A DNA stretch of 64,000 nucleotides from Candidatus Aminicenantes bacterium (GTDB lineage: Bacteria; Acidobacteriota; Aminicenantia; Aminicenantales; Saccharicenantaceae): NCBI GenBank assembly GCA_963805045.1, contig CAWDTC010000014.1:76359-140358 (forward strand), written 5' to 3'. Positions 1,323 to 15,441 of the stretch are shown in pieces. The translations under genes were made by a program, and so were the position numbers. The notes below the pieces were generated by a model. The model was not told where the DNA came from. It made no database searches and was given only the letters and a program-made list of their open reading frames with translations. Positions within the stretch are counted from its first letter, which is position 1. The number at the start of each line of letters is the position of its first letter.

Positions 1323-4300
1323 TCAGCGGACCGGGCCGAGGTCCCTGATCTCGGTCACGACGAGCCGCACCGGTCCCAGCAGGCCGGACGGGACGAGCGC
1401 GTCGCCCTTTTTCCAGAGGCGCCAGCTGGTGAAGGTGAACCGGCCCGTCGGGCTCGGCTTCCCGGCCTGGAGCCAGGCGGGCCATTCCTTGAGCGTGCCG
1501 TCCTTGTTGCGCCGGCTGTCCTCGGGGAGCGACTCGTCGCCGATCATCCGGTTCGGCCAGAGGTTCGTCACCCGGATCTCCAGAGCGTTCGGGCCGGCTT
1601 TCAAGGCGTCCGTGACGTCCACGCGGTAGGGAGGCTTCCAAAGAAGGCCGAGGTCGCGGCCGTTGACCTTGAGCTCGGCCATGACCCGGACGTCGCCGAG
1701 GTCGAGGTAGACGCGGCGGTCCTTCGCCCCCGCCGCGAAGCCCTCGGGCGCGGTCACCGTCCCAAGATACGTCGCTGTTCCCGAAAAGAACCTGACGCCC
1801 GGGTCTCCGGAATCCGTCCACGAGCCGAGCCGCTCGAACGTCGCCCGCTCCGGCGCACCGCAACCGGCCGGGAAGCGGACCTCCCACGGGCCGCCGATCT
1901 CGACCGGCGTCGGCACGGACGCGACGTCGCTCCGCAACGTCTTTCCGGACGCGGTCTTGAGCTCGTAGGCGCCCGGCCGCCACATCTCGGCCTGGAGACG
2001 GCCGTCGGCGCCGCGGCGGAGGTCGAGGACCTCTTCGGTCCGCTCGGTCGGCCTCAGGTCAACCGTCTCCGGGTCCGTGGCCGTGACCGACAGGGCTTTC
2101 CCGCCCATCCGGTAGTCGAGGGCGAGCGTCTTGACGACGTTCGCGGCCGGGTCGTCACCCTCCGCGAGCCGCGCGACGCGGAAGCTCGTCTCGCCCGAAT
2201 CGGCCAGCCGCTGGACCCTCTCGCGCACGTCGCGGGTGCGCGCGGCGTCGCCCGGGACGCCGTAGACAGCCTTATCCACGACGAGGGCCTCCGGCGTCGC
2301 AGGGGTCGTCGTCCAGAGGGATTTCCCGTCGCGCGAGGCGGCGACGATGCCCGCGTCCTTGGCCCCGGCCTCACGAAAGACGACGAAGACCGAGCCGCTC
2401 GGCCCGAGCGGGAGCATCACGCTCGTTCCACCGTCACGCCGCTCGAAGGCCGCGGCGCGCTCGACGCGCCCCGTTTCGGGCCACCAGAGCTCGGGAACTT
2501 TGCCGGCGACGCGGAACTCGGCCGCCGCCGTCACCTCGAAGGGCTCGGGATTGGAGACGAAGTAGATGTCCGCGCCGCCGTCGACGCGGTGGATATAGCG
2601 CCAGCGGGCCGCGCCCGCGAAATCGGGCCCGACACCCATGCCGGCGAGGACCTCCTCGGGCGTCTCGCCGGAGACGACCCTCCCCTGCCCGAGGCGATGC
2701 TCCTTGACCGTCTTCCCGTCGCAATCGGCCCAGAGCTCGTCCGCCAGCCGCCTGACCTCGTCGTCGCACGCCGGATAGCCGGAGAGGCTCGGCGATCGTT
2801 CCGGCCGCGGCCCGACGACCGTCGCCCCGTCCTTGACGAGGGCGACGACCTTGCGCAGGAGGGCCGGGGTCATGACCGGCGAATCGGAAAGCGCGAGGAG
2901 CCTGTAGCTCATGCCTCCAGGCGAGGACGAGCCGCCCGTCCTTCGCCGTCATCCGCTCGATGACGACCTCGGCCGAGGCCTCGTCCCAGTCGTAGCCGCG
3001 GCGCGGGTGGTCGGCGAAGCTCTGCGGCGGCGCCTCCGGCTGGAGATAACAGATGTCGGCCGCGAAGGTCCCGCGGCGGAGCATGAACTGGCAGCGGGCC
3101 AGGTATTCGTGCCAGCCCGGCGTCAGCTCCCACCAGGTGTTGGTCCGCTCGTAATGGAGACCCCACGGGCCCATGGTCATGCCGGGCCGGCGGTCGATCC
3201 AGGGCTGCATCGCATAGCGGTGGAAGACGAAGCGGTTGACGCCGTCGGTGAAGGCGCGGTCGCCGAGGGACTTGATCGAGGCCGGATGCTCCAGCCACTT
3301 CTCGCGGTCGCCCGCGGTGAACGACTCGGCGCCGAGGATGGTCTTGCCGTAGGTGTGCACGGCGGAGGCCATGCCCTTGACCGTCTCGAGCGCGCCGCCG
3401 CCCATCCAGAACTCGCACATCGGCTCGTCGGCCTCGCCGGCGTAGGGCAGGTCGTCGCAGGGGCCGCCGTAGGCCTCGATGGAGAGGCGCAGGCCGCGGG
3501 CGCGGGCCAGCTCGCCGAGGCCGCGGGCGTAATTCTCGACGACGAGCTCGGAGACCGTCCGGCGCAGGTCCCACAGGAAGCGCTCGGAGATCTCCAGGCT
3601 CCCGACGACCCGCCCCGTGAAGACCGGCAGATAGGGGTGGAGGTCGTAGCCGCGGCGCTTGGCGAATTCGGCCGCCATCGCCGCGGTCCAGTTCTGAGAG
3701 CCGTTCTCCCAGCTGTCGATGTGCGTCGAGACGAGGACCTTGCCGGCCGCCGGGCCCGCGTCGGCGATGAGCTTCTCCATCATGCCGCGGTAGTTGGCCT
3801 CGATCCCCGCTCGGGAGAGCTTGTCGCACTCGAGGCCGCGGCCGCTTTTCGGCGCCGGGGCGTTCTCGACGCCCGTCGTGGTGTGGCCGAAACGCACGAC
3901 GGTCCACTTTCCGGCCGGAACGTCCCAGGTCAGGCGGCCGTTCGCGTCCAGCCGCTCCTTGAGGTCGACGATCCGCGCCGGGTCGATGACCTCCGCGGCG
4001 GGCAGGTCGCCCCGGGCGGGCGCCCCGACGGCGCCGACCTCGTAGGCCGCCTTGGCCTTGATGCCGGCGATCCGATAGGCGCCCGGCGTCGGGAAGGCCA
4101 GGACCGCGATGTCGCGATAGAACCCGGCCGTTGCCTGGGGCTGAGGCAGGGGGCTCGGCGAACCGGCGCGGCCCCGCGACCTCGGTCTCGGTCCAGACGA
4201 CCTTCTGCATCGACTCCTCGGGCTTGATCCATGGCCCGCCGCTCCCGTTCCAGCCGGCGTCGTCGTTCATGTTGATCTCGAGCCCGAGCCGCTCCGCCTC

Positions 4301-4707: not shown

Positions 4708-6018
4708 TCAGACGAGGGCGCCCTTCCTGACGATCGCCTCCATGACGTCGGCGAACGTATCGATCTCCCGGACCGTCAGCGAGACGTTGACGACGATGCG
4801 GATGCCGTCGACGAGGCCGTCCGGGTGCTTGATGCCCGAGACGATGATGCCGTACTTGTCGAGAAGGTGCGCGGCGAGCTTGTCCATGTCCAGACCCTCG
4901 ACGCCGATGGTGGCGATGGCGCAGGACTCGGCCGGGTCGAGGCTCGTGTAGAACCGGACCTTGGGCAGGGCGCGGAGCCGGTTGGCCCAGCGCTCCTTGA
5001 GGTAGCGGAGGCGGGCCGACTTGCGCTCGATGCCGATGCCCTCGTTGAAGGTGATGGCCTCGGCGATGGCGATGCGGTTGGCCGGGGTGCGCGTGCCGAC
5101 GTCCTCGAAGCGGCGGATGTCGTTCGGCGTGTCCGTCCAGGGCGGCGTCAGAGGCCAGAGCTTGGGGATGCGGTCCTTGGGGATGCGGACGAAGCCGTTC
5201 CCCGGCGGGGCCATCAGCCATTTGTGGAGGCTCGCCGTGTAGTAGTCGCAGCCGAGGTCGGCCAGCTTGAACGGCACGTGCATGAAGCCGTGGGCGCCGT
5301 CGACGATGACCTCGATGCCCTTGGCGTGGGCCATGTCCGAGATCCGCCGGACGGGCGACATCTGGCCCGTGTAGTGGGTCATGTGGCAGACGAGGATGGC
5401 CTTCGTCCGGGGCGTCACCTGCTCGGCGACGAGATCGTAGAACTTGTCGAGCGGCACGGGCGGGGCGGGAAGCTTGGCCATCTTGAGGACGATGCCCTCG
5501 CGTTTCTCGCGCTGCTTCCAGGTGCCGATGAGCCGCGGGTAATCCTGGTTCGTGGTGACGACCTCGTCGCCGGGCTTGAGGTCGAGGCCGAGGATGGCGA
5601 TCTGGCCCGCCTCCGAGCCGCCGCGGCAGAGGACGAGCTCCTCGGGGTCGCAGCCGAGGTGAGCCCCGAGCCGGCGCCGGCAGCTCTCGATCTCCTTGTT
5701 CAGGACGGCCATCGACTGCCAGGCGGCGCCGCTCGTGAAGTCGCTGTGCCTCTGGACCGACTCCTGGACGATGCGCAGGCCGTTCTGGACGGTGCCGTTG
5801 TTCAGGTTGATGTAGTTGCGGTCGAGGGCGAAGGCCTGCTGGACCTCGAACCAGAAGTCCTCGTCGGCCGCCACTTGTTCGGGGGTCATGTCGGCGGTGT
5901 CGCGCCCGGCGGCCAGGATGCGCTCGAGAGCGTTCGCGGGGGTCGCGGCCAGAGCGCCCACGCCGACGGCGCAGTCGCGGATGAAGTCGCGCCGGTTCAG
6001 GCTGTCCTTGGATGCCAT
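4708..6018 (-). CDS. Aminotransferase class V-fold PLP-dependent enzyme with twin-arginine (Tat) signal
   Basis: Intact 436-aa ORF. N-terminus SLNRRDFIRDCAVGVGALAATPANA is Tat-type. Class V features include VIVDGAHG and YYTASLHKWL (PLP-lysine context). It ends 62 nt upstream of the hydrolase gene on the same strand. Confidence 0.85.
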   Translation of the reverse strand: MASKDSLNRRDFIRDCAVGVGALAATPANALERILAAGRDTADMTPEQVAADEDFWFEVQQAFALDRNYINLNNGTVQNGLRIVQESVQRHSDFTSGAAWQSMAVLNKEIESCRRRLGAHLGCDPEELVLCRGGSEAGQIAILGLDLKPGDEVVTTNQDYPRLIGTWKQREKREGIVLKMAKLPAPPVPLDKFYDLVAEQVTPRTKAILVCHMTHYTGQMSPVRRISDMAHAKGIEVIVDGAHGFMHVPFKLADLGCDYYTASLHKWLMAPPGNGFVRIPKDRIPKLWPLTPPWTDTPNDIRRFEDVGTRTPANRIAIAEAITFNEGIGIERKSARLRYLKERWANRLRALPKVRFYTSLDPAESCAIATIGVEGLDMDKLAAHLLDKYGIIVSGIKHPDGLVDGIRIVVNVSLTVREIDTFADVMEAIVRKGALV

Positions 6019-6251
6019 GTCGCCTCCTCGTTCGCGCTTTGGTGAGACGGACCGCCTGCGCGGCCCCGCTCAATTTAACCCAGGTCGAGAGCGGTTTTCA
6101 AGGACATCGCCCCGCCGGCCGGAGGGCGGGAGTCCCGCGCGGCGAACATCGGTCCCGTCCGGGAAGATGACGGGCAGGAAATCGGCGTGCCGCGAACGGC
6201 CGGCCCGACCGCCGCCGCCTGGAAAAGCGATAACGGATGGTCGCCCCGACT

Positions 6252-6267
6252 TGGCACGCTCTTTGCA
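6252..6267 (+). promoter_or_regulatory. Sigma-54 (RpoN) -24/-12 promoter
   Basis: TGGCAC-GCTCT-TTGCA matches the TGGCAC-N5-TTGCW consensus exactly. Same strand as the CsgG-like ATG (6446) and about 180 nt upstream of it. Confidence 0.6.
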
Positions 6268-6445
6268 TTTTCACCGGCTTAGAGCAGACGGTGATGCGCC
6301 TGCTTGGGGGCCGCCGGCAGGGACGGAGATGGGCTCGGAGAAATCGACCCTACCTCCCGCCGGGGCCCCCGCATATCTTAATTCGGGGCAGGCCGGGAAT
6401 GAGAACGAGGGTCGTTCCGGCCCGGGGCCTCCAGGAGGGGAGATC

Positions 6446-7390
6446 ATGAAAAACCGCCGGGCGAAATCCGTCCTCAAGTTCTGCGCGCTCCTCGGGTTGA
6501 CGGGGCTCCTGCTGGGCCCGAGAGCGTGGGGCGACCAGAAGACCCTGGCCGTCATGAAGTTCACCACGACCGCCGGCGGAGGCCGGAGCTACTGGTACAA
6601 CGCGAGCTGGGACCTCGGCGAGGGCATGGCCGAGATGCTCACGACGGCCCTCGTCGGGACCGGAAAGTACAGGATCGTGGAGCGCCAACAGCTCCATGAT
6701 GTCCTCGGCGAGCAGGACCTCGGGGCGAGCGGCCGGGTCGACCCCGAAACGGCCACGAAGATCGGCAAGATCCTCGGCGCCCGCTATCTCGTGTACGGGA
6801 CGGTCAACGAGTTCGAATACTCCCGGGCCGGCGAGGGCGGCGGCGTCCGGATCGGCGGATTCCGCGTCGGCGCGAGCGAGGCGAAGGCCCACATCGGCAT
6901 GGACATCCGCATCGTCGACGGGCTCACGAGCGAGATCCTCTTCTCCACGCGCTCGACCGCCGATGCGACGAGGACGGGGTTCAAGGTCGGCTACTCCGCC
7001 GCGGACTTCGGCACGAGCCTGGGGGCCTTCCAGCAGACGCCTCTCGGCGAGGCCACCCGGAAGGCCATCGAATACGCCGTCGCGAAGATCGTCAACGAAT
7101 TCGGGACGGAGGCTCCTCCGGCGCCGGCCGTGAAGTGGTCGGGGACGCTCATCGTCGCCGACGACGGGACGCTCGTCATCAAGGCCGGAAGCCAGGCGGG
7201 ACTGAAGTCCGGCGACATCCTGACCGTGTTCAGGGCGAGGACGGCCAAGGCCGGGAACGAGGTCCTGACGGTCGGGGAAGATCAGATCGGGAAGGTCCGG
7301 CTGACCTCGGTCGGCGACTCGGCCTCTTCTGCGGCCGTCGTGGAGGGCAGCGGTTTCAAGACTGGGGATATCGTCAGGAGCGGCGTCTGA
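6446..7390 (+). CDS. CsgG-family (curli-type secretion/assembly component-like) periplasmic/OM protein with extra C-terminal domain
   Basis: ATG 6446 follows a GGAGGGGAG SD. Signal peptide MKNRRAKSVLKFCALLGLTGLLLGPRAWG. Core TLAVMKF...GEGMAEMLTTALVGTGKYRIVERQQLHDVLGEQDLGASGRVDPETATKIGKILGARYLVYGTVNEF matches the CsgG family signature. An extra ~100 aa lies at the C-terminus (VKWSGTLIV...GDIVRSGV). Listed ORF 5816..7390 is coding only from 6446. Confidence 0.75.
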   Translation: MKNRRAKSVLKFCALLGLTGLLLGPRAWGDQKTLAVMKFTTTAGGGRSYWYNASWDLGEGMAEMLTTALVGTGKYRIVERQQLHDVLGEQDLGASGRVDPETATKIGKILGARYLVYGTVNEFEYSRAGEGGGVRIGGFRVGASEAKAHIGMDIRIVDGLTSEILFSTRSTADATRTGFKVGYSAADFGTSLGAFQQTPLGEATRKAIEYAVAKIVNEFGTEAPPAPAVKWSGTLIVADDGTLVIKAGSQAGLKSGDILTVFRARTAKAGNEVLTVGEDQIGKVRLTSVGDSASSAAVVEGSGFKTGDIVRSGV

Positions 7391-7517
7391 GGGCGGCCGA
7401 GTTTACGCAGGGACGCCCATCGCTCTAGGTTCCACGTCGGAGTACTCGGCGAAATCCATCGCCAAGGGGCAGGCCAGGTACAGGATCCTCGACCCGCGCT
7501 GACCCAGTGCCTGAGGC

Positions 7518-7934
7518 TTACTTCTTGGTCGGCGCTTTGCCCTCGTCGTGGGATTCGGTCGGTGGATGGCCCTGGCCGCCCTCCGCGGGCTTCGGCGCGG
7601 CGGCCTTCTTCTCGGGCTTTGGCTTCTTTTCCTTGGCCTCCGCGGAACCCTTCTTCGGCTTCTCGGGCTTGCCGCCTTCCTCTTCCTTCGCGGGGGCCGC
7701 CGCTTTGGCCGCTTTCCTCTTCACCAACTCCTCGGCCAGCTTTTCCTGGGCGGCGATGGCCCTCAGCCGGCGGTTCACGGTCCTGATCTCCGCTTTCAGG
7801 TTCCTGACGAGGGGGTCCTTGTCAACCTTGGCGGGTTCGACGCCCTTGACCGAGAGCGATTTCAGCCGGTCCTTCAGCTTTTGCTCGAAATAGGCCTTGT
7901 GCCTCAGATGGATTTCTTTCCTTTTCGACGCCAT
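7518..7934 (-). CDS. Hypothetical basic protein with Lys/Ala/Pro/Glu-rich low-complexity tail
   Basis: 138-aa ORF with a GAGGAGGAG SD directly upstream. Ordered N-terminal ~70 aa, then AAKAAAPAKEEEGGKPEKPKKGSAEAKEKKPKPEKKAAAPKPAEG. No family recognised. Confidence 0.6.
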   Translation of the reverse strand: MASKRKEIHLRHKAYFEQKLKDRLKSLSVKGVEPAKVDKDPLVRNLKAEIRTVNRRLRAIAAQEKLAEELVKRKAAKAAAPAKEEEGGKPEKPKKGSAEAKEKKPKPEKKAAAPKPAEGGQGHPPTESHDEGKAPTKK

Positions 7935-8137
7935 TCTCTCCTCCTCATCGATTCCGCTCGTTATTCCGGCGGGAACGGGCCGCTCAGCGTTCCTTCTTGC
8001 CCGCCGGGCCGATCAGTGTAAGCCGTATATTTATATCAGGGTTCCGGCCAAAAAGCCATCCCTGGGCCTTAACAAAGGCCTTGAAAACCCGCGTCCGCCC
8101 GCGCTATAGTGAGGCAAAGCGAAAGGGGTATCGGGAC

Positions 8138-11100
8138 ATGAAGTGTCCTGCCTGCCACTCTGAAAACCCTGCCGACAGCCAATTCTGCCATAAGTGCGGA
8201 TCGTCCATCGAGATCTCCACCTCCCCGACCCTCTCCTACTCGCCCGCCCAGGAGACCGCGCGTCGGCGAGAGCCTCAAGTTCAACCCCGGGGATAAGTTC
8301 GGCGACCGCTATACGATCATCGAGGAGATCGGCCGCGGAGGGATGGGCAGGGTCTATAAGGCCAAGGACCAGGAATTGGGGATCACGGTCGTTCTCAAGA
8401 TGATCCGCCCCGATCTCACGTTGCGGCCGGGCATGGTCGACCAGTTCAGGAAGGAAACCCTGCTCGGCAGGTCGGTCTCTCACGAGAACGTGGTCAGAAT
8501 CCATGACATTGGGGCGGTGAACGACATCCGGTACATCTCCATGGATTTCATCAAGGGGGAGAACCTCTTCGAACTCATGGAGACGTCGGGCACCCTGACG
8601 CTTTCGACTTGCATGGGCATCGCTCTCCAGGTTTGCCGGGCGCTGAAGGCGGCCCACGAGAAGGGGATCGTCCACCAGGACCTCAAGCCCCAGAACATCA
8701 TGATCGACAATTCCGGGAAGGTCTATGTCACGGACTTCGGCCTGGCCAAGTCCGTCTCCGCGCCCCCCGCGCATCGCCTGGGCAAGGTCTCTGGCACGCC
8801 GAAGTATTTCTCGCCGGAGCAGGCCCGGGGCGATGAGTCGGACCGGAGGTCGGACATCTATTCCCTGGGGGTCATCCTGTACGAAATGGTGGCGGGGACT
8901 CCCCCGTTCAAGGCCGATTCGGTTGAGGGCTACATCAAGAAGCACGCGTCCGAGAAGCCGCCCCTGCCCTCCAAGTTCAATGCGGATATCCCACCCGCCT
9001 GCGAGAAGATCATCCTCAAGTGTTTAGAGAAGAAAAAGGAAGACAGGTATCAGAGTATCGATGATCTCATCAGGGACCTCGAAGCCCAAAAGGCGCATGT
9101 CACGGGGGCTGGGAGCAATTGGCAGGTTGAGAAGGTGGCAGAAGGCCGTGGTCGTCTCCGCTCTGGTCCTCGTCGCCGGGGTCGGCATCTACGAACTCGC
9201 TAAAGGTCATCTTCCCGCCGAAGCCAGCACCTTCGCCTGGGCGTCATCGCCGTCATGTACGCCGTTAACAACTCCGGCGACAAGAGCCTGGACGACCGGC
9301 TCCGGTGGGTGATCCCTTACTACCTGGCCATGGCCCTCACGCAGTCCAAGTATCTCAGCGTGCTCCCCCAGGACCGGCTGATGCAGATCCTATCGGACAT
9401 GAAGCAAATGAACGAGGACCGCCCGCTCTCCAGGACGCTGGACAGGGTTTCAGACCAAGCGAACGTCGGCTATTTCGTCCTGCCCAGTTTCACAAAAGCC
9501 GGCGCCGATATCGCGGTCAGCTTCACGGTCAGGAGGGCCAAGAGCGACCAGACGGTCGGAGAGTCTGGCACGGTCAGGGGAAGGGGCCTCGAGGACGTCC
9601 CGTCAATGGCGGAAGAGATGAGCCAGAAGGTGAAATCCCAACTCAGCCTCTCCCCCGCCGAGATCGCCGGGGATGCGAATCAACGCCTGGACAAGATCAC
9701 GACGGTCTCTCCCGAAGCGGTTCGTTATTACGTGGAATCCCAGAAGTTCTTATGCCGAGGGAGACTTCAGGGCCAGCGTTCAGGCCCTGAAAGAGGCCGT
9801 CAAGGCGGATCCCAATTATGCGCTGGCCTACGAGCAAATGGCCGTCGATTACGGGTACCTTGGAGAATATGGGAACCTGCGGAAGGCGCTGCAAAAGGCC
9901 TTGGACCTCTCCGACCGGGTTTCCGAGAGGGATCGGTATTTTATCCAGGCCTACGCCGCCACGAGTTGAACGATTCTCCTCTGCCGGCGATCGAGATCTA
10001 TAAGAAGATCATCGGCCTTTACCCGGCGGATGAGGAAGCCTATGCCTCTCTGGGCGCGACTACCGGAATCTCGAGCAATGGGACCTCGCGATGAACCAGT
10101 ATGAGAAGGTTGCCGCCCTCAACCCGAAGTATCCGTTCCTGGCCGAGAACAAAGCTTATATCTATGCGGCTACGGGACGGTACAAGGAAGCCCTCGAGCT
10201 GAGCGAAGGCGGCGCGGCAGGCTCCTTCAACGTGAACTTTTTCCTCAGATACCTCCCCCTCCTGCATCTCATCCAAGGCCAATACGAAAGCGCGGCCGCG
10301 GAACTAAGAAGATCGCTCGAGCGCAGGCCCGACAGTCCCCGTCTCATCGAGCTCGAGGGAATCCTCGACCTCCTCAAGGGCGATTTCGGGAGTGCCGGGA
10401 AGGTCTTCGAGGAACTTCGACGGAAGGGCGAGGCGATCCCCGAAGCGCCTAATCAGTGTGGCCGGCGCCAGCTGGTGGGCATGCACGTGTTGCATGGTGA
10501 ATACCGTCAGGCCCAGAAGGAGATTTCCGAAGGGATCGAAATGGCCAGAAGATCCGACCTGGCTTGGGACGAGATGGACTATCGATTGTTGCTCGCGTAT
10601 ACGGAACTCCAGCTCAAGCGGTATTCGAGGGTCGTGGAAGCTTCAAAGCCGGCCCTCGAGATCGCCAGGAAGACCTTCGAATCTGAGAATCAAAAGTTTG
10701 CTCTCCATCTCCTTGGGTCTCGCGTCCCTCGGCCAGGGCCGCGTCCAAGAAGCGGCGGCCATCGCCGGGCAGCTTCATCAGCTCATCGAGCGAACAGCCT
10801 TCCCGAAGAGCATGAGGCATTACGAGCACTTGATGGGACATGTGGCCCTGAAAGAGGGGCATCCCGACGAGGCCGTGCGTCATTTTGAACAGGCCGTTTC
10901 ATTGTTGCCCTGCCAAGACGGAAATTTATGACGAGCAGGCCTTCTATTATGACGGCCTCGCCGCGGCCTACTACTCAGAGCGGCGATTGGCCCAAAGCCA
11001 TCGAAACCTACAAGTCCATCATCTCCATGACTACAGGAAGGCTCCGCTGGGGCGACATTTATGCCCGAAGCTACTACTGGCTCGGAAAATGCTATCAAAG

Positions 11101-11230
11101 AAGCGGGAACAGCATCGAGGCGAGGGCCAATTACCTGAAATTCCTCGAGCTCTGGCAGAACGCCGACGAGGGATTGCCGGAAGTTGCCGACGCCAAGAAG
11201 GAGCTCGCGGCCCTGGGCAGGGTCCCTTAA
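8138..11230 (+). pseudogene. Ser/Thr protein kinase with N-terminal zinc ribbon, TM helix, periplasmic domain and TPR repeats; about nine frame changes
   Basis: Zinc ribbon MKCPACHSENPADSQFCHKCG starts at ATG 8138. Hanks kinase motifs GRGGMGRVYKA, HQDLKPQNIMID, DFGLAK and GTPKYFSPE lie in ORF 8343..9203. TM helix AVVVSALVLVAGVGIYEL is in ORF 9061..9312. TPR-like repeats run to 11230. Homologous sequence hops frames 2>3>1>3>1>3>2>3>1>2. One junction (about 9960) looks like a missing C in gccgcc(c)acgag. Confidence 0.8.
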
Positions 11231-11263
11231 TCGGACGACTTTCTCAGGTCGCCTGGGCTGTCC

Positions 11264-12305
11264 TTATCCAACCGGTCCCAAAAGAGCCGCGTTTCTCTTC
11301 CTCAGGAACTGCGCGACCTGGCAGGTCCACGAGGGGATCCGGCCCATTTCGCCCGTCGTCAAAGCCGCTACGACAGGACACACGCGACAGTATTCAACTT
11401 CCCGGCACATCAGGCACGACCGGTCGGGCGTCGAAAAGCGGTCCATTCGGAGTTCAGAGTAATTCGCCATGACCCGGGCATAGATGTCTTGAGCGTTCTT
11501 GATGAACGAGTCAACATCGCCGAAACAATACTTCCGGTGCTCTTCCCTCCGGTCCTCCTCCCCGAAAAATTGAGGGAAGAGGACGCAGCCCCAGAGCGTT
11601 CCTCGTGCGGACAGCGCCAACTGGTCTGCTCCCGCCGAACAGCGGAACACTCCCCGCTCCGGCTCTTCACGAAAACCGACCCACGGGACGTCCTGCAGGA
11701 TTCTCGTAACAGGAATCGAAATATTCCCCGACTCGAGCGACCTCCCTTTTCAGGCGCTCGAGAGACGCGGGAGTCCATGTCGGCACGTGCGCGAAATTGA
11801 CGTAGAACTTCCGGACCCCCATCTGAACGATGGCCCGGATCGAATCCGAAAGATAGCCAACCGTCTCCGAGCTGAAGACGCTATTGGTTTCCAAGAGGAT
11901 CCCGGGCTTTGCCAAGATCTTGGGAATGAGGGACGTTAAGAGGTCAAAAGTCCCTTTTTTTCTCGATATATCCTGGGCTTGGCCGTCGAAGCTCAGCATC
12001 AGAGTAAACTCGTGTTCCTCGAGAAAACCGAGAATCTCCTCGTCGAGGAGACTGCCGTTCGTGGTCAGAGCATATCGGACCTCTCGGTCATTCTTCTTCG
12101 ACAGTTTCTCCACATATTCGACAGCTCGCTTGAGCTCATTAAAGGCCAGGAGCGGTTCGCCGCCATAAAAGCTGACGTAGCATCCGGGACCGAAAAAGGG
12201 ACGGAAGAAATCTATCGCTTTGGCGAGGGTCGAGAACCCCAATCGCTGTCTTCGTCTCGTCTGAGAACAGTAAGCGCAACGAAAGTTGCACTCTTCCGTC
12301 AGCAT
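11264..12305 (-). pseudogene. Radical SAM enzyme with C-terminal SPASM-type auxiliary cluster domain (one frame change near 11680-11695; start possibly upstream of 12305)
   Basis: ORF 11667..12305 begins MLTEECNFRCAYC (CxxxCxxC) and contains FYGGEPLL. ORF 11264..11650 carries CSAGADQLALSARGTLWGC (Cx12Gx4C) and CLMCREVEYCRVC (Cx2Cx5Cx2C), i.e. SPASM-like. The frame stays open upstream to about 12404 and an AAGGAGA SD sits at 12382-12388, with no canonical start codon after it. Confidence 0.8.
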
Positions 12306-12422
12306 GACGGTAAAGCCGTGGAGTTCAAGGCAGCCCAGAGACGGCTCGTCCCTAAGCGCAACCCGGATAGGTAGGATTAGCTCTCCTTGAGACGACTTCC
12401 CCTATTCAGACGTATATCAGGC

Positions 12423-12644
12423 TCAAGGCTGAGGGAATGGGGCAGCCACCGGCGGTGCGACCTTGCAATGGCCAGGGCCTACGCCATAAATCGCTTCAAT
12501 AATAGTATCCAACGCCTCTTGTGCTGAAACAAGATCCGCCGCAGTTGCGCTTGCCGGATTCCTCAGATAGTTTCCGATTTGATTGAGTAGAAGGACGAAA
12601 TTCGGCAAATCTCGATGCTGCTTTGTAAATTTTTCCATTTTCAC
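12423..12644 (-). CDS. 73-aa peptide, candidate precursor/partner of the adjacent radical SAM/SPASM enzyme
   Basis: MKMEKFTKQHRDLPNFVLLLNQIGNYLRNPASATAADLVSAQEALDTIIEAIYGVGPGHCKVAPPVAAPFPQP. AAGGAGG SD lies 7 nt before ATG 12644, with a TATAAT box about 15 nt upstream of the SD. Co-directional with the radical SAM gene and 117 nt upstream of it. Confidence 0.55.
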   Translation of the reverse strand: MKMEKFTKQHRDLPNFVLLLNQIGNYLRNPASATAADLVSAQEALDTIIEAIYGVGPGHCKVAPPVAAPFPQP

Positions 12645-12667
12645 CCCTCCTTGAAAATAGACCTGAG

Positions 12668-12699
12668 ATTATACTAAGTAACCCCGAGATAATAGTCAA
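12668..12699 (-). promoter_or_regulatory. Putative sigma-70-type promoter for the 73-aa peptide gene
   Basis: On the minus strand: TTGACT (12699-12694), a 20-nt spacer (long), then a perfect TATAAT (12673-12668). Immediately upstream of the SD and ATG of the peptide ORF. Confidence 0.4.
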
Positions 12700-12750
12700 G
12701 CCCATCTTTGCTCCGAATCATGACCTCCAGACGCGCCTTAACCGACCTTG

Positions 12751-13509
12751 CTACTTGGACGGCGACGACATCGGGAGGGCGTCGAGCGCGAACGTGAGTC
12801 CGACGTAGAAACGCCACTGCAACCCCGCTTGAGTGTGCAGGTTAGCCGCCGCAGCAACGTCGGCCCCTTCCGTTAGCCCGTTGCCAAGGCGAGTAATGGC
12901 CTGGCATGTCGCGCCAATGCCGAGGCGTACAAAACGATGGAATTCGATACTCGGTCCTACGAACAGAGCCGTCTTCCTTAGAGAATTAAGGCCAAAACCG
13001 AATTCCAGACCGAGTTCGAGCGGTTTCTGCTGCGCGTTGCTACAGAACAACGGGCGCGCCCGCAAGAACACCATAGCCACGATTGTGCCCCAGTGGGAGT
13101 CTTCTGTCGTACGCACAATTTCCACCTGGCCACCAGGATTGGTAGGATCCGCCGGGATCGTTCCGAACGATGGGTCAGTAATCCCCTTAAAGGCGGTAAT
13201 TCCGATACCAAAGCCGAGGAATGATTCCCGGTGGCTAACGAAGAGGAATTTCTTCTCGATCCCCGTCGGCTTAAGACAAGGACATTCCGGGGAGACCGAC
13301 GAATCTGCCTTGATGGAGAGGATCCCAGGGTTATCCTGGAGCCAAATCTGGCTAGGAAACGGCGGCGCCACAACCGCGATTTTCCCGGCCAATGGCCAAG
13401 TCCAACCGTAGCCCATCAGGGGGAGGAGCGCCTGTGTTCTCCCGAGTTGGACAAACTTCTTGAGCTGAGCCGCGGCGGCAGTAAAGTCTTTCTTCGCTGC
13501 GAAGCACAT
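12751..13509 (-). CDS. Hypothetical beta-strand-rich protein (possible outer-membrane beta-barrel; may be the C-terminal part of the upstream ORF)
   Basis: 252-aa ORF with alternating hydrophobic strands (LELGLEFGFGLN, ALFVGPSIEFH, VRLGIGATC, LQWRFYVGLTFAL). It overlaps the 3' end of ORF 13352..14665 by about 158 nt in another frame. Weak SD. Lower GC than flanks. Confidence 0.5.
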   Translation of the reverse strand: MCFAAKKDFTAAAAQLKKFVQLGRTQALLPLMGYGWTWPLAGKIAVVAPPFPSQIWLQDNPGILSIKADSSVSPECPCLKPTGIEKKFLFVSHRESFLGFGIGITAFKGITDPSFGTIPADPTNPGGQVEIVRTTEDSHWGTIVAMVFLRARPLFCSNAQQKPLELGLEFGFGLNSLRKTALFVGPSIEFHRFVRLGIGATCQAITRLGNGLTEGADVAAAANLHTQAGLQWRFYVGLTFALDALPMSSPSK

Positions 13510-14617
13510 TATTCGATATGAGGGCGACCCTTATTAGCCAATCGTTCTGAAACTCACGGAAGACGGCCTTTTGTTCATCGCTCTCGGCAGAGGAAACGAC
13601 AGGCTCCTTTCTAAGCGTCTCTTCCAATTTCTCCAGTGCGATGAACGCGTCCTTCACCATCTCTTCACACCGATAATCGCCTTGGGCATTGATCTTGAGC
13701 ATTTCAGCTCGGGCAGCTGCTAGGTCGTCTTCTTCGACATTGGGAAGAGCGGCAAGCCGTGCCAACGGCCCCCATACCTGATAACAGGAGCGGGGCTTTG
13801 GCAGGTTCGCAGCTATCCGTTCAAATTCGTCGAGAGCGACGAGACCATTTTGAGCCATACCCGCCACGAACTCGAGGCTCGGCGGCCATGGCGTGTCGTC
13901 GCCAGTCTCGAGTCGCCTTACTAGGCTTTGAATGAGCTCGCGCTCTGTTACCATGTCATTAAGGGCATAGAGAGCTTTGCAGACCACACCTTCGACCTCA
14001 ATCCTCTTCTGTGCATCTTCTTTCGCTTTTCGTTCTTCTTGAGAAAGCTCCGCCCCTTTTTTAAGAAGACGATCGAGCCTCTTTTTGGCCTGCCTCCTGT
14101 CATCGACCATGACCAAGTTCGCGGCACCGATCGCGCTTAGAGCCGCCCCCATCGTCGCAGCGTCTGGGCTGTATTGAGGGGGAGAGACTGTGGCTTCGTA
14201 CGAGTAGCGAAAAGGGTTTGTCCTTACGACAACCAAAACCGGCTTTTCATCTCGCGCACGCACAACTCGGGGATTCCCATCCGGCCCCGGGAGAACAGCC
14301 TGTTTGTCCTCCGATACGGAGATGGCCGATCCCCGACTGTGAGAATGATACACGCTCCAGCTGAGCGTTTCATGATTGAGCACAAGGTAGACGATCCGCG
14401 TATTGCTGGGATCTATCCCTTTCGAAACATTCAATGCCTGCTGGAACTTCGCATCCGCGAGCATTGCCTGGACAGAATCTATAGGCCTGTTTTCTGAGCA
14501 ATCTGTGGGGGCGGCATAGATGCTCCCAAGAATCAACACGACGGACAGGAGCACGGCGTGACTGCATCGGACAACCACGCCTGACCATTTTGTCTGATAG
14601 TTTGCCCGTAAAAGCAT
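13352..14617 (-). CDS. Hypothetical secreted protein with coiled-coil/helical region (3' end uncertain)
   Basis: AGGAGG SD lies 7 nt before ATG 14617 (MLLRANYQTKWSGVVVRCSHAVLLSVVLILGSIYAAP, signal-like). Charged helical stretch RRQAKKRLDRLLKKGAELSQEERKAKEDAQKRIE. The last ~50 aa (…RGSAQEVCPTRENTGAPPPDGLRLDLAIGRENRGCGAAVS) look out of frame. No family recognised. Confidence 0.55.
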   Translation of the reverse strand: MLLRANYQTKWSGVVVRCSHAVLLSVVLILGSIYAAPTDCSENRPIDSVQAMLADAKFQQALNVSKGIDPSNTRIVYLVLNHETLSWSVYHSHSRGSAISVSEDKQAVLPGPDGNPRVVRARDEKPVLVVVRTNPFRYSYEATVSPPQYSPDAATMGAALSAIGAANLVMVDDRRQAKKRLDRLLKKGAELSQEERKAKEDAQKRIEVEGVVCKALYALNDMVTERELIQSLVRRLETGDDTPWPPSLEFVAGMAQNGLVALDEFERIAANLPKPRSCYQVWGPLARLAALPNVEEDDLAAARAEMLKINAQGDYRCEEMVKDAFIALEKLEETLRKEPVVSSAESDEQKAVFREFQNDWLIRVALISNNVLRSEERLYCRRGSAQEVCPTRENTGAPPPDGLRLDLAIGRENRGCGAAVS

Positions 14618-14709
14618 AGAAAACCTCCTACCCAGAAGAAATGGAAGGAATAGAGCCCAAACCAAGGACTCACGGTCCCCCCGCCATCTCGATTGCCCGA
14701 CCCGACTGT

Positions 14710-14738
14710 CATATAGGCCTTTTTCCGCTGCCTGTCAA
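14710..14738 (-). promoter_or_regulatory. Putative sigma-70-type promoter for the island operon
   Basis: Minus strand: TTGACA (14738-14733), 17-nt spacer, TATATG (14715-14710). About 90 nt upstream of ATG 14617. Confidence 0.45.
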
Positions 14739-14865
14739 TACTGATCGGCCCTAGGAAGCATTACAAGAGGATTATGCCTGCGCGGACGGAGAGAGTGGGG
14801 TCAAATGGATCAGGGGTCGAAGAAAAGCGTAAGCTAAGTGAGTGATTCGTCGGGAAAAAAAGAAA

Positions 14866-14938
14866 TGACCCGTGTAGGACTCGAACCTACAACCCGCGGA
14901 TTAAGAGTCCGCTGCTCTACCGATTGAGCTAACGGGCC
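14866..14938 (-). tRNA. tRNA-Lys (anticodon CUU)
   Basis: Reverse complement GGCCCGTTAGCTCAATCGGTAGAGCAGCGGACTCTTAATCCGCGGGTTGTAGGTTCGAGTCCTACACGGGTCA folds as a cloverleaf. It has a 7-bp acceptor stem (one G-U), anticodon loop CTCTTAA (anticodon CTT), T-arm GTAGG-TTCGAGT-CCTAC and discriminator A. CCA is not encoded. Confidence 0.93.
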
Positions 14939-14951
14939 AAAAAGCGCCTCT

Positions 14952-14980
14952 AGTTTAGATGAGTTGATGCCGCTTGTCAA
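14952..14980 (-). promoter_or_regulatory. Sigma-70-type promoter of tRNA-Lys
   Basis: Minus strand: TTGACA (14980-14975), 17-nt spacer, TAAACT (14957-14952). It ends about 13 nt upstream of the tRNA 5' end. A near-identical copy (TTGACA, 18 nt, TAAACT) sits at 15079-15108. Confidence 0.6.
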
Positions 14981-15006
14981 ACCTCCGCGCATATGGGGAA
15001 AACGTG

Positions 15007-15065
15007 CTCGAACCTACAACCCGCGGATTAAGAGTCCGCTGCTCTACCGATTGAGCTAACGGGCC
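15007..15065 (-). pseudogene. Truncated tRNA-Lys(CUU) copy lacking the 3' T-stem strand and 3' acceptor strand
   Basis: Identical to positions 1-59 of the intact tRNA. The 3' 14 nt (CCTACACGGGTCA region) are replaced by the promoter of copy 1. It has its own promoter copy at 15079-15108. Confidence 0.8.
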
Positions 15066-15162
15066 AAAAAGCGCCTCTAGTTTAGATGAGTCTCGGCCCG
15101 CTTGTCAAACCCCGGCGCATATGGGGGAAACATGCTAAGATAGGGCCGGAGCCCGCGCCGCG

Positions 15163-15441
15163 ATGCCCGAAGACGACCCCGTGAAGATCCCCATCGACGG
15201 TGTCCTCGACCTCCACACCTTCGCCCCGAAGGACGTCAAGGACCTGGTGCCGGAGTATCTCGAGGAGTGCCTGCGGCGCGGCATCACCGAGGTCCGCATC
15301 ATCCACGGCAAGGGGACGGGGACGCTCAAGGCGATCGTTCACGGAATCCTGAGGAAGAACCCGAACGTCGCCTCTTTCGAGGACGCCGACCCGATGGCCG
15401 GGGGCTGGGGCGCGACGCTCGTCCGGCTCCGCCTCCCCTGA
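15163..15441 (+). CDS. Smr domain protein
   Basis: 92-aa ORF with IDGVLDLHTF...EVRIIHGKGTGTLK...VASFEDADPMAGGWGATLVRL, the Smr/MutS2 C-terminal domain pattern. Confidence 0.8.
   Translation: MPEDDPVKIPIDGVLDLHTFAPKDVKDLVPEYLEECLRRGITEVRIIHGKGTGTLKAIVHGILRKNPNVASFEDADPMAGGWGATLVRLRLP

Follow-up and report, generated by a model that had tools for sequence, protein, structure and literature searches.

A conserved small-peptide gene beside a radical SAM/SPASM enzyme gene in Candidatus Aminicenantes: a putative peptide-modification module

We analysed a 64,000-nucleotide stretch of DNA from a Candidatus Aminicenantes bacterium (assembly GCA_963805045.1, contig CAWDTC010000014.1, positions 76,359 to 140,358), here called the window, in whose numbering all positions are given unless another locus is named. 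On its minus strand a gene for a radical SAM/SPASM enzyme (11264..12305) is directly preceded by a gene for a small peptide (12423..12638), and a gene for a receptor Ser/Thr kinase (8138..11230, plus strand) lies tail-to-tail with the enzyme gene. The original prediction, made from the sequence of the window without database searches, held that the peptide and the enzyme form a substrate/maturase pair. Comparison with other genomes supports this proposal, as the closest homologues of the enzyme do have a similar small open reading frame (ORF) upstream. We found in addition that the kinase is a conserved, convergently oriented partner, that the lack of a RiPP recognition element (RRE; RiPP, a peptide made on the ribosome and modified after translation) is a rule for the enzyme family, and that the frame change noticed earlier in the enzyme gene is one of many.

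The peptide and enzyme genes

The precursor peptide gene (MEKFTKQHRDLPNFVLLLNQIGNYLRNPASATAADLVSAQEALDTIIEAIYGVGPGHCKVAPPVAAPFPQP; 12423..12638, minus strand) encodes 71 amino acids when read from the ATG at 12638 and 73 when read from the GTG at 12644. A Shine-Dalgarno (SD) sequence, AAGGAGG (12646..12652, minus strand), can be read directly 7 nt ahead of the ATG, and homologous peptides begin MEKA..., MEKY... or MEKP..., much as the 71-residue form begins MEKF.... Thus, the 71-residue product is the most likely one; the ORF and its SD at 7 nt are real as originally proposed, but that spacing fits the ATG and not a 73-residue product. The predicted leader (12486..12638, minus strand; residues 1-51) is helix-prone, carries a conserved L-P-x-F-x-x-L-x-x-x-I motif and ends with an invariant tyrosine, Tyr51. 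It is followed by a putative core of 20 residues, GVGPGHCKVAPPVAAPFPQP (12426..12485, minus strand), in which x3-P-P comes after the single cysteine, Cys58 (nt 12467-12465), and the tail behind this cysteine measures 13 residues. This agrees with the bipartite, single-cysteine peptide that had been described before. The +2 frame across the core (12423-12490, minus strand; ...GGCPIPSALSLIYV*) is also open and contains a cysteine with an 11-residue tail. We judged it coincidental because frame 0 gives the C-x3-P-P found in the closest relatives (L161, L167 and L001) and because its tyrosine-to-cysteine distance of 7 falls within the family range of 6-11.

Upstream of the peptide gene, the promoter-like hexamers TTGACT (12699-12694) and TATAAT (12673-12668) lie 20 nt apart (12668..12699, minus strand) and are identified by consensus match only. 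TTGACT occurs only once here and is the nearest −35-like hexamer, and TAGTAT, at 17-nt spacing, is an alternative −10 partner. The perfect TATAAT pointed out earlier is therefore present, but our consensus scan found 1 promoter-like site in 2 kb where 0.7 are expected by chance, and so we give it no weight. The peptide stop and the enzyme ATG at 12305 are separated by 117 nt, exactly the gap that had been reported. No significant RNA structure was predicted in this stretch (z −0.2), which leaves an attenuator without support.

As assembled, the enzyme gene consists of two ORFs, 12305..11667 (212 amino acids) and 11650..11264 (128 amino acids). DNA alignment with three homologues (L161, L001 and L166) established that a single extra base is present at 11692..11699 (minus strand), inside CCTGCAGG, where the YENP codons meet those of QDVPW. 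Once the frame is repaired, the product has 346 residues, matching the ~347 and the one frame change anticipated from the sequence, and aligns end to end with ~360-residue homologues, without a gap over the YENP|QDVPW junction. Its N-terminal part (11693..12305, minus strand) is the radical SAM core, which matched Pfam Radical_SAM (PF04055; E 2.6e-12) with 47.7 bits, above the gathering threshold of 29.5. The cluster motif CNFRCAYC (12290-12267) occupies residues 6-13 (C6, C10 and C13) counted from the ATG at 12305, where it had been placed before, and the CxxxCxxC pattern is invariant among homologues.

The C-terminal part (11264..11692, minus strand) is predicted to form a SPASM-type auxiliary-cluster domain with cysteines 222, 240, 260, 297, 300, 306, 309 and 328, arranged as C222-x12-G235-x4-C240...C297-x2-C300-x5-C306-x2-C309...C328. 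This is a SPASM-type arrangement, with a last spacing of x2 where the SPASM definition (CX9-15GX4C...CX2CX5CX3C...C) has x3. The auxiliary-cluster cysteines, including C260, and G235 were invariant or nearly so in alignments of 14 and 24 sequences, which substantiates the cysteine set singled out in the original prediction. An AlphaFold2 model of the enzyme (pLDDT 75.9, pTM 0.78) superposed over its full length on the SPASM enzymes CteB and anSME (the anaerobic sulfatase maturase); a fold search with this model returned CteB (TMq 0.72, E 2.5e-13), anSME (TMq 0.72) and ChlB (TMq 0.70). A sequence-profile search of the PDB ranked CteB (4.5e-22) ahead of TigE (1.6e-19), ChlB (4e-12) and anSME (1.7e-11).

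The frame of the enzyme remains open upstream of the ATG, up to 12401, and a LELHGFTV stretch in this extension is conserved in homologues. Thus, the true N terminus is probably 10-25 residues longer than the ATG at 12305 implies. Between 12401 and this ATG there is no ATG, GTG or TTG in the open frame that would suit the conserved N-terminal strand. We could read an SD-like AAGGAGAG (12388-12381) followed by in-frame CTA ATC (12372..12388, minus strand), 24 codons upstream of the ATG; together with the ATC it may represent a non-canonical or damaged start. The enzyme gene as assembled is thus not intact, as it carries a 1-nt insertion and has no canonical start before the conserved strand. 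The earlier reservation that an RRE was absent unless the start lay upstream holds in part: the start probably does lie upstream, but at most ~40 residues precede the cysteine triad in homologues, which leaves no room for an RRE in the whole enzyme family. Together, motifs and predicted fold show the enzyme to be a radical SAM protein with a putative SPASM-type domain for two auxiliary Fe-S clusters and without an RRE.

Conservation of the pair and of its sensor neighbour

The enzyme has 1457 relatives in the databases. The top 120 have E < 1e-102, come mostly from metagenome-assembled genomes (MAGs) of Aminicenantes and place the family at a minimum of 120 clusters at 90% identity. We fetched 80 genome loci, 80 metagenome loci and 11 loci by exact protein look-up. 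Metagenomes yielded no relative when scanned with the enzyme sequence alone and only 5 family loci when scanned with an enzyme alignment. Likewise, a word-index search with the peptide alone had no match; its homologues surfaced only by tblastn on the loci fetched with the enzyme, followed by a profile search and an exhaustive phmmer search. In the tblastn search the matches to the window peptide fell immediately before the enzyme gene, with E 1e-11 in L002, E 1e-9 in L001 and a weaker match in L003. The profile search added five further small proteins, all labelled hypothetical, and phmmer gave 6 matches among 1.84 billion representative proteins.

In ~27 of 32 family loci, and in all 8 of the closest relatives that were looked up, the enzyme gene is immediately preceded by a small ORF. 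Every close relative examined (L001, L002, L003, L082, L161, L163 and L166-L171) has an ORF of 60-78 amino acids at this position. In distant relatives of the enzyme (35-46% identity) upstream ORFs are mostly present too, with unrelated helical leaders and a similar C-terminal ending. An alignment of 8 precursors showed L11, P12, F14, L17, I21, A42, Y51 and C58 to be invariant, and the proportion of nonsynonymous differences (pN) was below that of synonymous ones (pS) in 10/10 peptide pairs tested, so that the peptide ORF is indeed conserved. When 33 precursors were aligned, Cys58 was the sole invariant residue apart from the initiator methionine.

Across 35 tabulated precursors, the last cysteine is 7-17 residues from the C terminus and is mostly preceded by glycine or proline. 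Glycine occupies position +2 in 15 of them, and proline is the commonest residue at +4 (11) and at +5 (14). The C-x3-P-P motif is common to the precursors of the window, L161, L167 and L001. The closest relatives carry aspartate or glutamate at +3 (C-N-M-D-P-P, C-H-F-D-P-P, C-V-S-E-P-P and C-S-V-E-H-P), where the window has alanine; the cores have no conserved aromatic residue. Within a group of precursors it is the leaders that are conserved, whereas cores are variable. No Pfam or NCBIfam model matched the window peptide or any of the 33 precursors scanned, in line with the view that it belongs to none of the known precursor families. An adjacent small gene, its conservation across genomes, a conserved leader and a variable core are all present, as the general definition of a RiPP pair has it. 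On this comparative evidence, the peptide-enzyme pairing is conserved in other genomes and goes beyond chance. Single genomes can hold at least two paralogous enzymes, as seen in the same-MAG locus pairs L003/L017, L008/L018 and L013/L014; in L003/L017 and L008/L018 a precursor gene precedes both enzyme copies, and the two precursors are not alike.

Alternatively, the small ORF could encode an accessory or regulatory protein, with the enzyme modifying the kinase or another protein. The modification of the peptide is predicted from sequence only, the enzyme is devoid of an RRE, and the kinase is the most constant neighbour of the pair, all of which would agree with such a role. Against it, the only invariant residue is a cysteine in a short, otherwise variable C-terminal tail, and just this tail occurs in tandem copies at three loci: six GCEGGKPVIK copies with variable spacers between them in L008 (214-708), two copies of EPGCLGRPIADR in L013 (5612-5863) and two PCxG units in L003 (3945-4328) and P0129/P0131. 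Repetition of cores is a typical trait of substrates, but not one of folded partners. Furthermore, the precursors range from 53 to 164 amino acids with leaders that are unrelated between groups, and the examined C-terminal stretch of the window kinase contains no cysteine. We therefore regard a non-substrate role of the peptide as highly improbable.

The receptor Ser/Thr kinase gene (8138..11230, plus strand) was delimited by Pfam matches to Pkinase and TPR and by tblastn with the intact 1030-residue orthologue from L163. The kinase consists of a zinc ribbon, a kinase domain, one transmembrane helix, an ectodomain and many TPR repeats; the single transmembrane helix follows the kinase domain, and the TPR region is predicted to be extracytoplasmic. 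We found a ~1030-residue kinase-TPR gene tail-to-tail with the enzyme gene in 24 of 33 assessable distinct loci. The arrangement persists down to 34-45% identity for both genes and recurs in the paralogous modules L003 and L017, which come from the same MAG. At several loci where the kinase-TPR gene is missing, another large sensor protein adjoins the pair: a Reg_prop/Y_Y_Y hybrid histidine kinase that also bears an AraC domain in L013 (289-4494), a Reg_prop/Y_Y_Y-AraC protein in L018 (1668-4454), a Reg_prop/Y_Y_Y-Ser/Thr kinase in L021 (2407-5595), and TPR proteins of ~620 amino acids in L019 (3729-5591) and L022 (3907-5766).

Another neighbour, located upstream of the peptide gene (12751..14665, minus strand), is a homologue of a 616-residue protein of L161 without a known domain (345-2195; 41-47% identity by tblastn). 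A single frame change, between 13503 and 13622, splits it in the window, and it matched no Pfam, NCBIfam or PADLOC family. As it was found beside the module only in L161/L162, we rejected it as a conserved member. We also rejected a defence system: PADLOC gave only generic viperin-like and kinase-domain matches, whereas the kinase, with its TPR repeats, is a transmembrane receptor and the enzyme combines a SPASM domain with a cognate peptide.

Known systems and the proposed modification

The best NCBIfam match of the enzyme was the PapB ranthipeptide maturase model NF047865 (128.1 bits, cutoff 340), which aligned over the full length. The next matches were CcpM, the SCIFF maturase, QhpD and RumMC; nearly all of the top matches are Cys-directed peptide maturases. 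In the comparison with PapB/freyrasin and the CXXX-repeat maturases (NF047865 and TIGR04115), enzyme residues 1-319 aligned to positions 8-326 of the 330 in the profile. PapB joins the sulfur of a cysteine to a residue that follows it a few positions later; the intervening sequence hardly matters, and even the C-terminal residue can be used (PMC12373016). By analogy only, such tolerance would be compatible with the constrained tail length of the precursors studied here. They too have one cysteine and a short tail, and the aspartate or glutamate at +3 in the closest relatives is reminiscent of the Cys-Asp/Glu links formed by PapB. However, PapA has six CX3D repeats, whereas the precursors here usually have one cysteine and no conserved acidic acceptor, and the window core, with its one cysteine and no acidic residue, lacks a repeated C-x3-D/E pattern. 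In addition, leader binding by PapB has been attributed to an RRE (PMC12373016), for which the enzyme family described here has no room.

Among solved structures, CteB, the SCIFF maturase (PDB 5WGG/5WHY), comes closest in sequence profile as well as in fold. It is likewise a SPASM enzyme and forms a thioether from a precursor cysteine. In contrast to the present family, CteB has an N-terminal RRE of ~100 residues, and SCIFF precursors contain six cysteines in ~45 residues; the corresponding model, TIGR03974, gave 67.6 bits against a cutoff of 425. ChlB (PDB 9GM3) provides a different precedent, as it is a radical SAM/SPASM peptide maturase of ~375 amino acids without an RRE that was crystallised with its own precursor leader. 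Thus, enzymes of this size can bind leaders directly. Yet ChlB forms C-C cyclophanes at aromatic-x-x motifs, whereas in the peptides analysed here the cysteine is conserved and the aromatic residues are not.

The anSME (PDB 4K36-4K39) has the same size and domain order as our enzyme, the same N-terminal cysteine triad and no RRE, and JGI labels many members of the enzyme family "AslB". In spite of this likeness, we rejected a sulfatase-maturase identity. The anSME models scored far below their cutoffs and over the N-terminal 125 residues only (TIGR03942, 47.1 bits against 349; NF010321, 34.4 against 441), no sulfatase Pfam was found among the called neighbours in the window and 8 homologous loci, and the peptide has no C/S-x-P-x-R motif. 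The original prediction had already noted that the peptide lacks this motif.

Clusters in which a kinase or cyclase accompanies RiPP genes (TIGR03903, TIGR04510 and NHLP-Burk) share with the present loci a large Ser/Thr kinase next to the precursor genes, as was noted for NHLP-Burk clusters (PMC2887384). In our case, however, the modifying enzyme is a radical SAM protein and not a cyclodehydratase, and the kinase is convergent, has no cyclase domain and scores far below the cutoffs. In the L163 kinase (7086-10175, minus strand of that locus) residues 377-632, comprising the ectodomain and the first part of the TPR region, gave 114.9 bits with TIGR04510 (cutoff 400), and the kinase domain gave 133.7 bits with the TOMM kinase/cyclase fusion model TIGR03903 (cutoff 705.75).

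By these sequence comparisons the system resembles a RiPP pair of ranthipeptide/sactipeptide type and falls outside the PapB, SCIFF/CteB, anSME and triceptide types. It is best described as an uncurated addition to the radical SAM/SPASM RiPP class, with an enzyme family that has neither a curated model nor a characterised member. Three traits distinguish it: a core with typically a single cysteine, the absence of an RRE and a conserved receptor-sensor neighbour. We found no paper linking Aminicenantes with radical SAM RiPPs or ranthipeptides.

The reading that we favor, and hold to be probable although well short of certain, is a RiPP-type module in which an RRE-less radical SAM/SPASM enzyme forms a thioether at the cysteine of its precursor, yielding a sensor-linked product. 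The enzyme would bind the leader directly, as ChlB does, and cleave SAM (S-adenosylmethionine) to generate a 5'-deoxyadenosyl radical. This radical would abstract hydrogen from a core residue some 3-5 positions C-terminal to the conserved cysteine, and the acceptor carbon would then be joined to the cysteine sulfur. One small thioether ring near the C terminus would result, with a net change of −2 Da. Since the cysteine is invariant and the nearest enzyme families form thioethers, the likeliest chemistry is a thioether made within the peptide at this cysteine.

The same pair could also carry out another chemistry, namely oxidation of the cysteine to formylglycine, the reaction of anSMEs (~−18 Da), a sactionine (sulfur to C-alpha), a C-C cyclophane or an epimer. 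The anSME-like architecture (~360-370 amino acids, no RRE, N-terminal cysteine triad; fold TMq 0.72) would be suited to the first of these, and the lack of a conserved acceptor side chain fits Cys-only or backbone C-alpha chemistry. Moreover, a proline a few residues past the cysteine, often followed by arginine, is loosely similar to the sulfatase C-x-P-x-R, and W-P-R in some cores resembles cyclophane motifs, ChlB being a fold neighbour. On the other hand, the spacing is C-x3-4-P and not C-x-P-x-R, and PapB, unlike the anSME models, aligned over the full length. Furthermore, aromatic residues vary among the cores, and the cyclophane models YhhB (NF041707) and AmcB (NF041718) gave only 36.3 bits against 445 and 33.3 against 425. 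Hence, we consider a chemistry other than a non-alpha thioether rather improbable.

As for the function of the thioether product proposed above, a signal or a sensor-controlled product appears more likely than a stand-alone antibiotic, because the module is genetically tied to a sensor neighbour, either the kinase or another large sensor. In a more specific version, the peptide modified at its cysteine would be the cognate extracellular signal of the adjacent kinase, sensed by the periplasmic ectodomain and the TPR region, with the Reg_prop/Y_Y_Y sensor as the receptor elsewhere. This would make the three genes a previously undescribed system of peptide pheromone and receptor kinase, spread as a duplicating three-gene unit through uncultured Aminicenantes, an idea that we put forward as a speculation with the odds clearly against it; a crosslink of a type not yet described might also be part of it, since no acceptor residue is conserved. 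If the sensor link is real, one family of bacterial receptor Ser/Thr kinases of the TPR type would gain a ligand. The consistent pairing with receptor-type sensors gives a concrete starting point for tests of peptide signalling in a phylum that only metagenomes have revealed. New peptide chemistry and tools for macrocyclisation have often come from radical SAM/SPASM peptide maturases, and simple precursors with one cysteine and a short tail, combined with a small RRE-less enzyme, should lend themselves to testing and might serve engineering.

State of the window copy and its surroundings

Several observations weigh against a functional thioether-forming, sensor-linked module. The Pfam SPASM model PF13186 matched the enzyme only weakly (13.5 bits, below the cutoff of 21.5; E 0.088), and no curated NCBIfam maturase family reached its cutoff. 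No acceptor residue is conserved in the cores, as position +3 is alanine in the window and position +4 is variable. The kinase gene is convergent with the enzyme gene and hence not co-transcribed with it, and their adjacency could in part be gene order inherited within one bacterial class. The conserved module contains no protease or exporter, only L009 having a HlyD-type neighbour. The absence of an adjacent sulfatase, leader protease or exporter, remarked on already in the original prediction, thus extends to the whole conserved module, and it weakens the signalling idea because a ligand would have to be exported to reach a periplasmic sensor. Finally, with a frameshifted enzyme gene that has no canonical start and a kinase gene with at least 9 frame changes, the copy in the window may be dead or inactive, or else the assembly carries indel errors.

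This last point raises the possibility that the window copy is a decaying remnant in a low-GC segment holding pseudogenes, while the family is functional elsewhere. The segment, ~7500-15000, contains the whole module and has a GC content of 52-60% and a third-position GC content (GC3) of 0.64-0.77, compared to 65-70% and 0.85-0.95 in the flanks. Within it, the kinase gene has its frame changes in 3.1 kb relative to the intact L163 orthologue, the homologue of the 616-residue protein is split, and the enzyme gene bears its insertion and has no canonical start before the conserved N-terminal strand; the density of frame changes is higher here than elsewhere in the window. The alanine at the position where the closest precursors have aspartate or glutamate would also be in keeping with decay. 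However, between the shifts the kinase retains ~60% identity to its orthologue, with no large deletions and only one or two in-frame stops, and neither the peptide ORF nor its SD nor the C-x3-P-P motif is damaged. In addition, a GH106 alpha-L-rhamnosidase gene in the high-GC flank (1326-4266, minus strand) is split into two frames near 2940, so that one ORF carries Pfam profile positions 185-587 and another carries 585-738. Frame errors are thus not limited to the low-GC segment, and it is likely that the assembly has indel errors throughout the window. We therefore take a decaying remnant to be the less probable account of this copy, though one to be reckoned with.

The low-GC segment ends at a tRNA-Lys(CTT) gene (14865-14939, minus strand). 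At its far boundary we found no repeat of the tRNA 3' end and no integrase, and its description as an integrated island is a guess. The segment is flanked by genes for a CsgG-family protein of 524 amino acids (5816-7390, plus strand) and a small Smr-domain protein (15163-15441, plus strand). Next to the tRNA gene, a tandem duplication of ~127 nt (14880-15008 and 15007-15136) covers the 5' 60 nt of the tRNA-Lys and its upstream region. The two copies share an 85-nt block with 100% identity and a 39-nt block with 90% identity, and only the first copy contains a complete tRNA.

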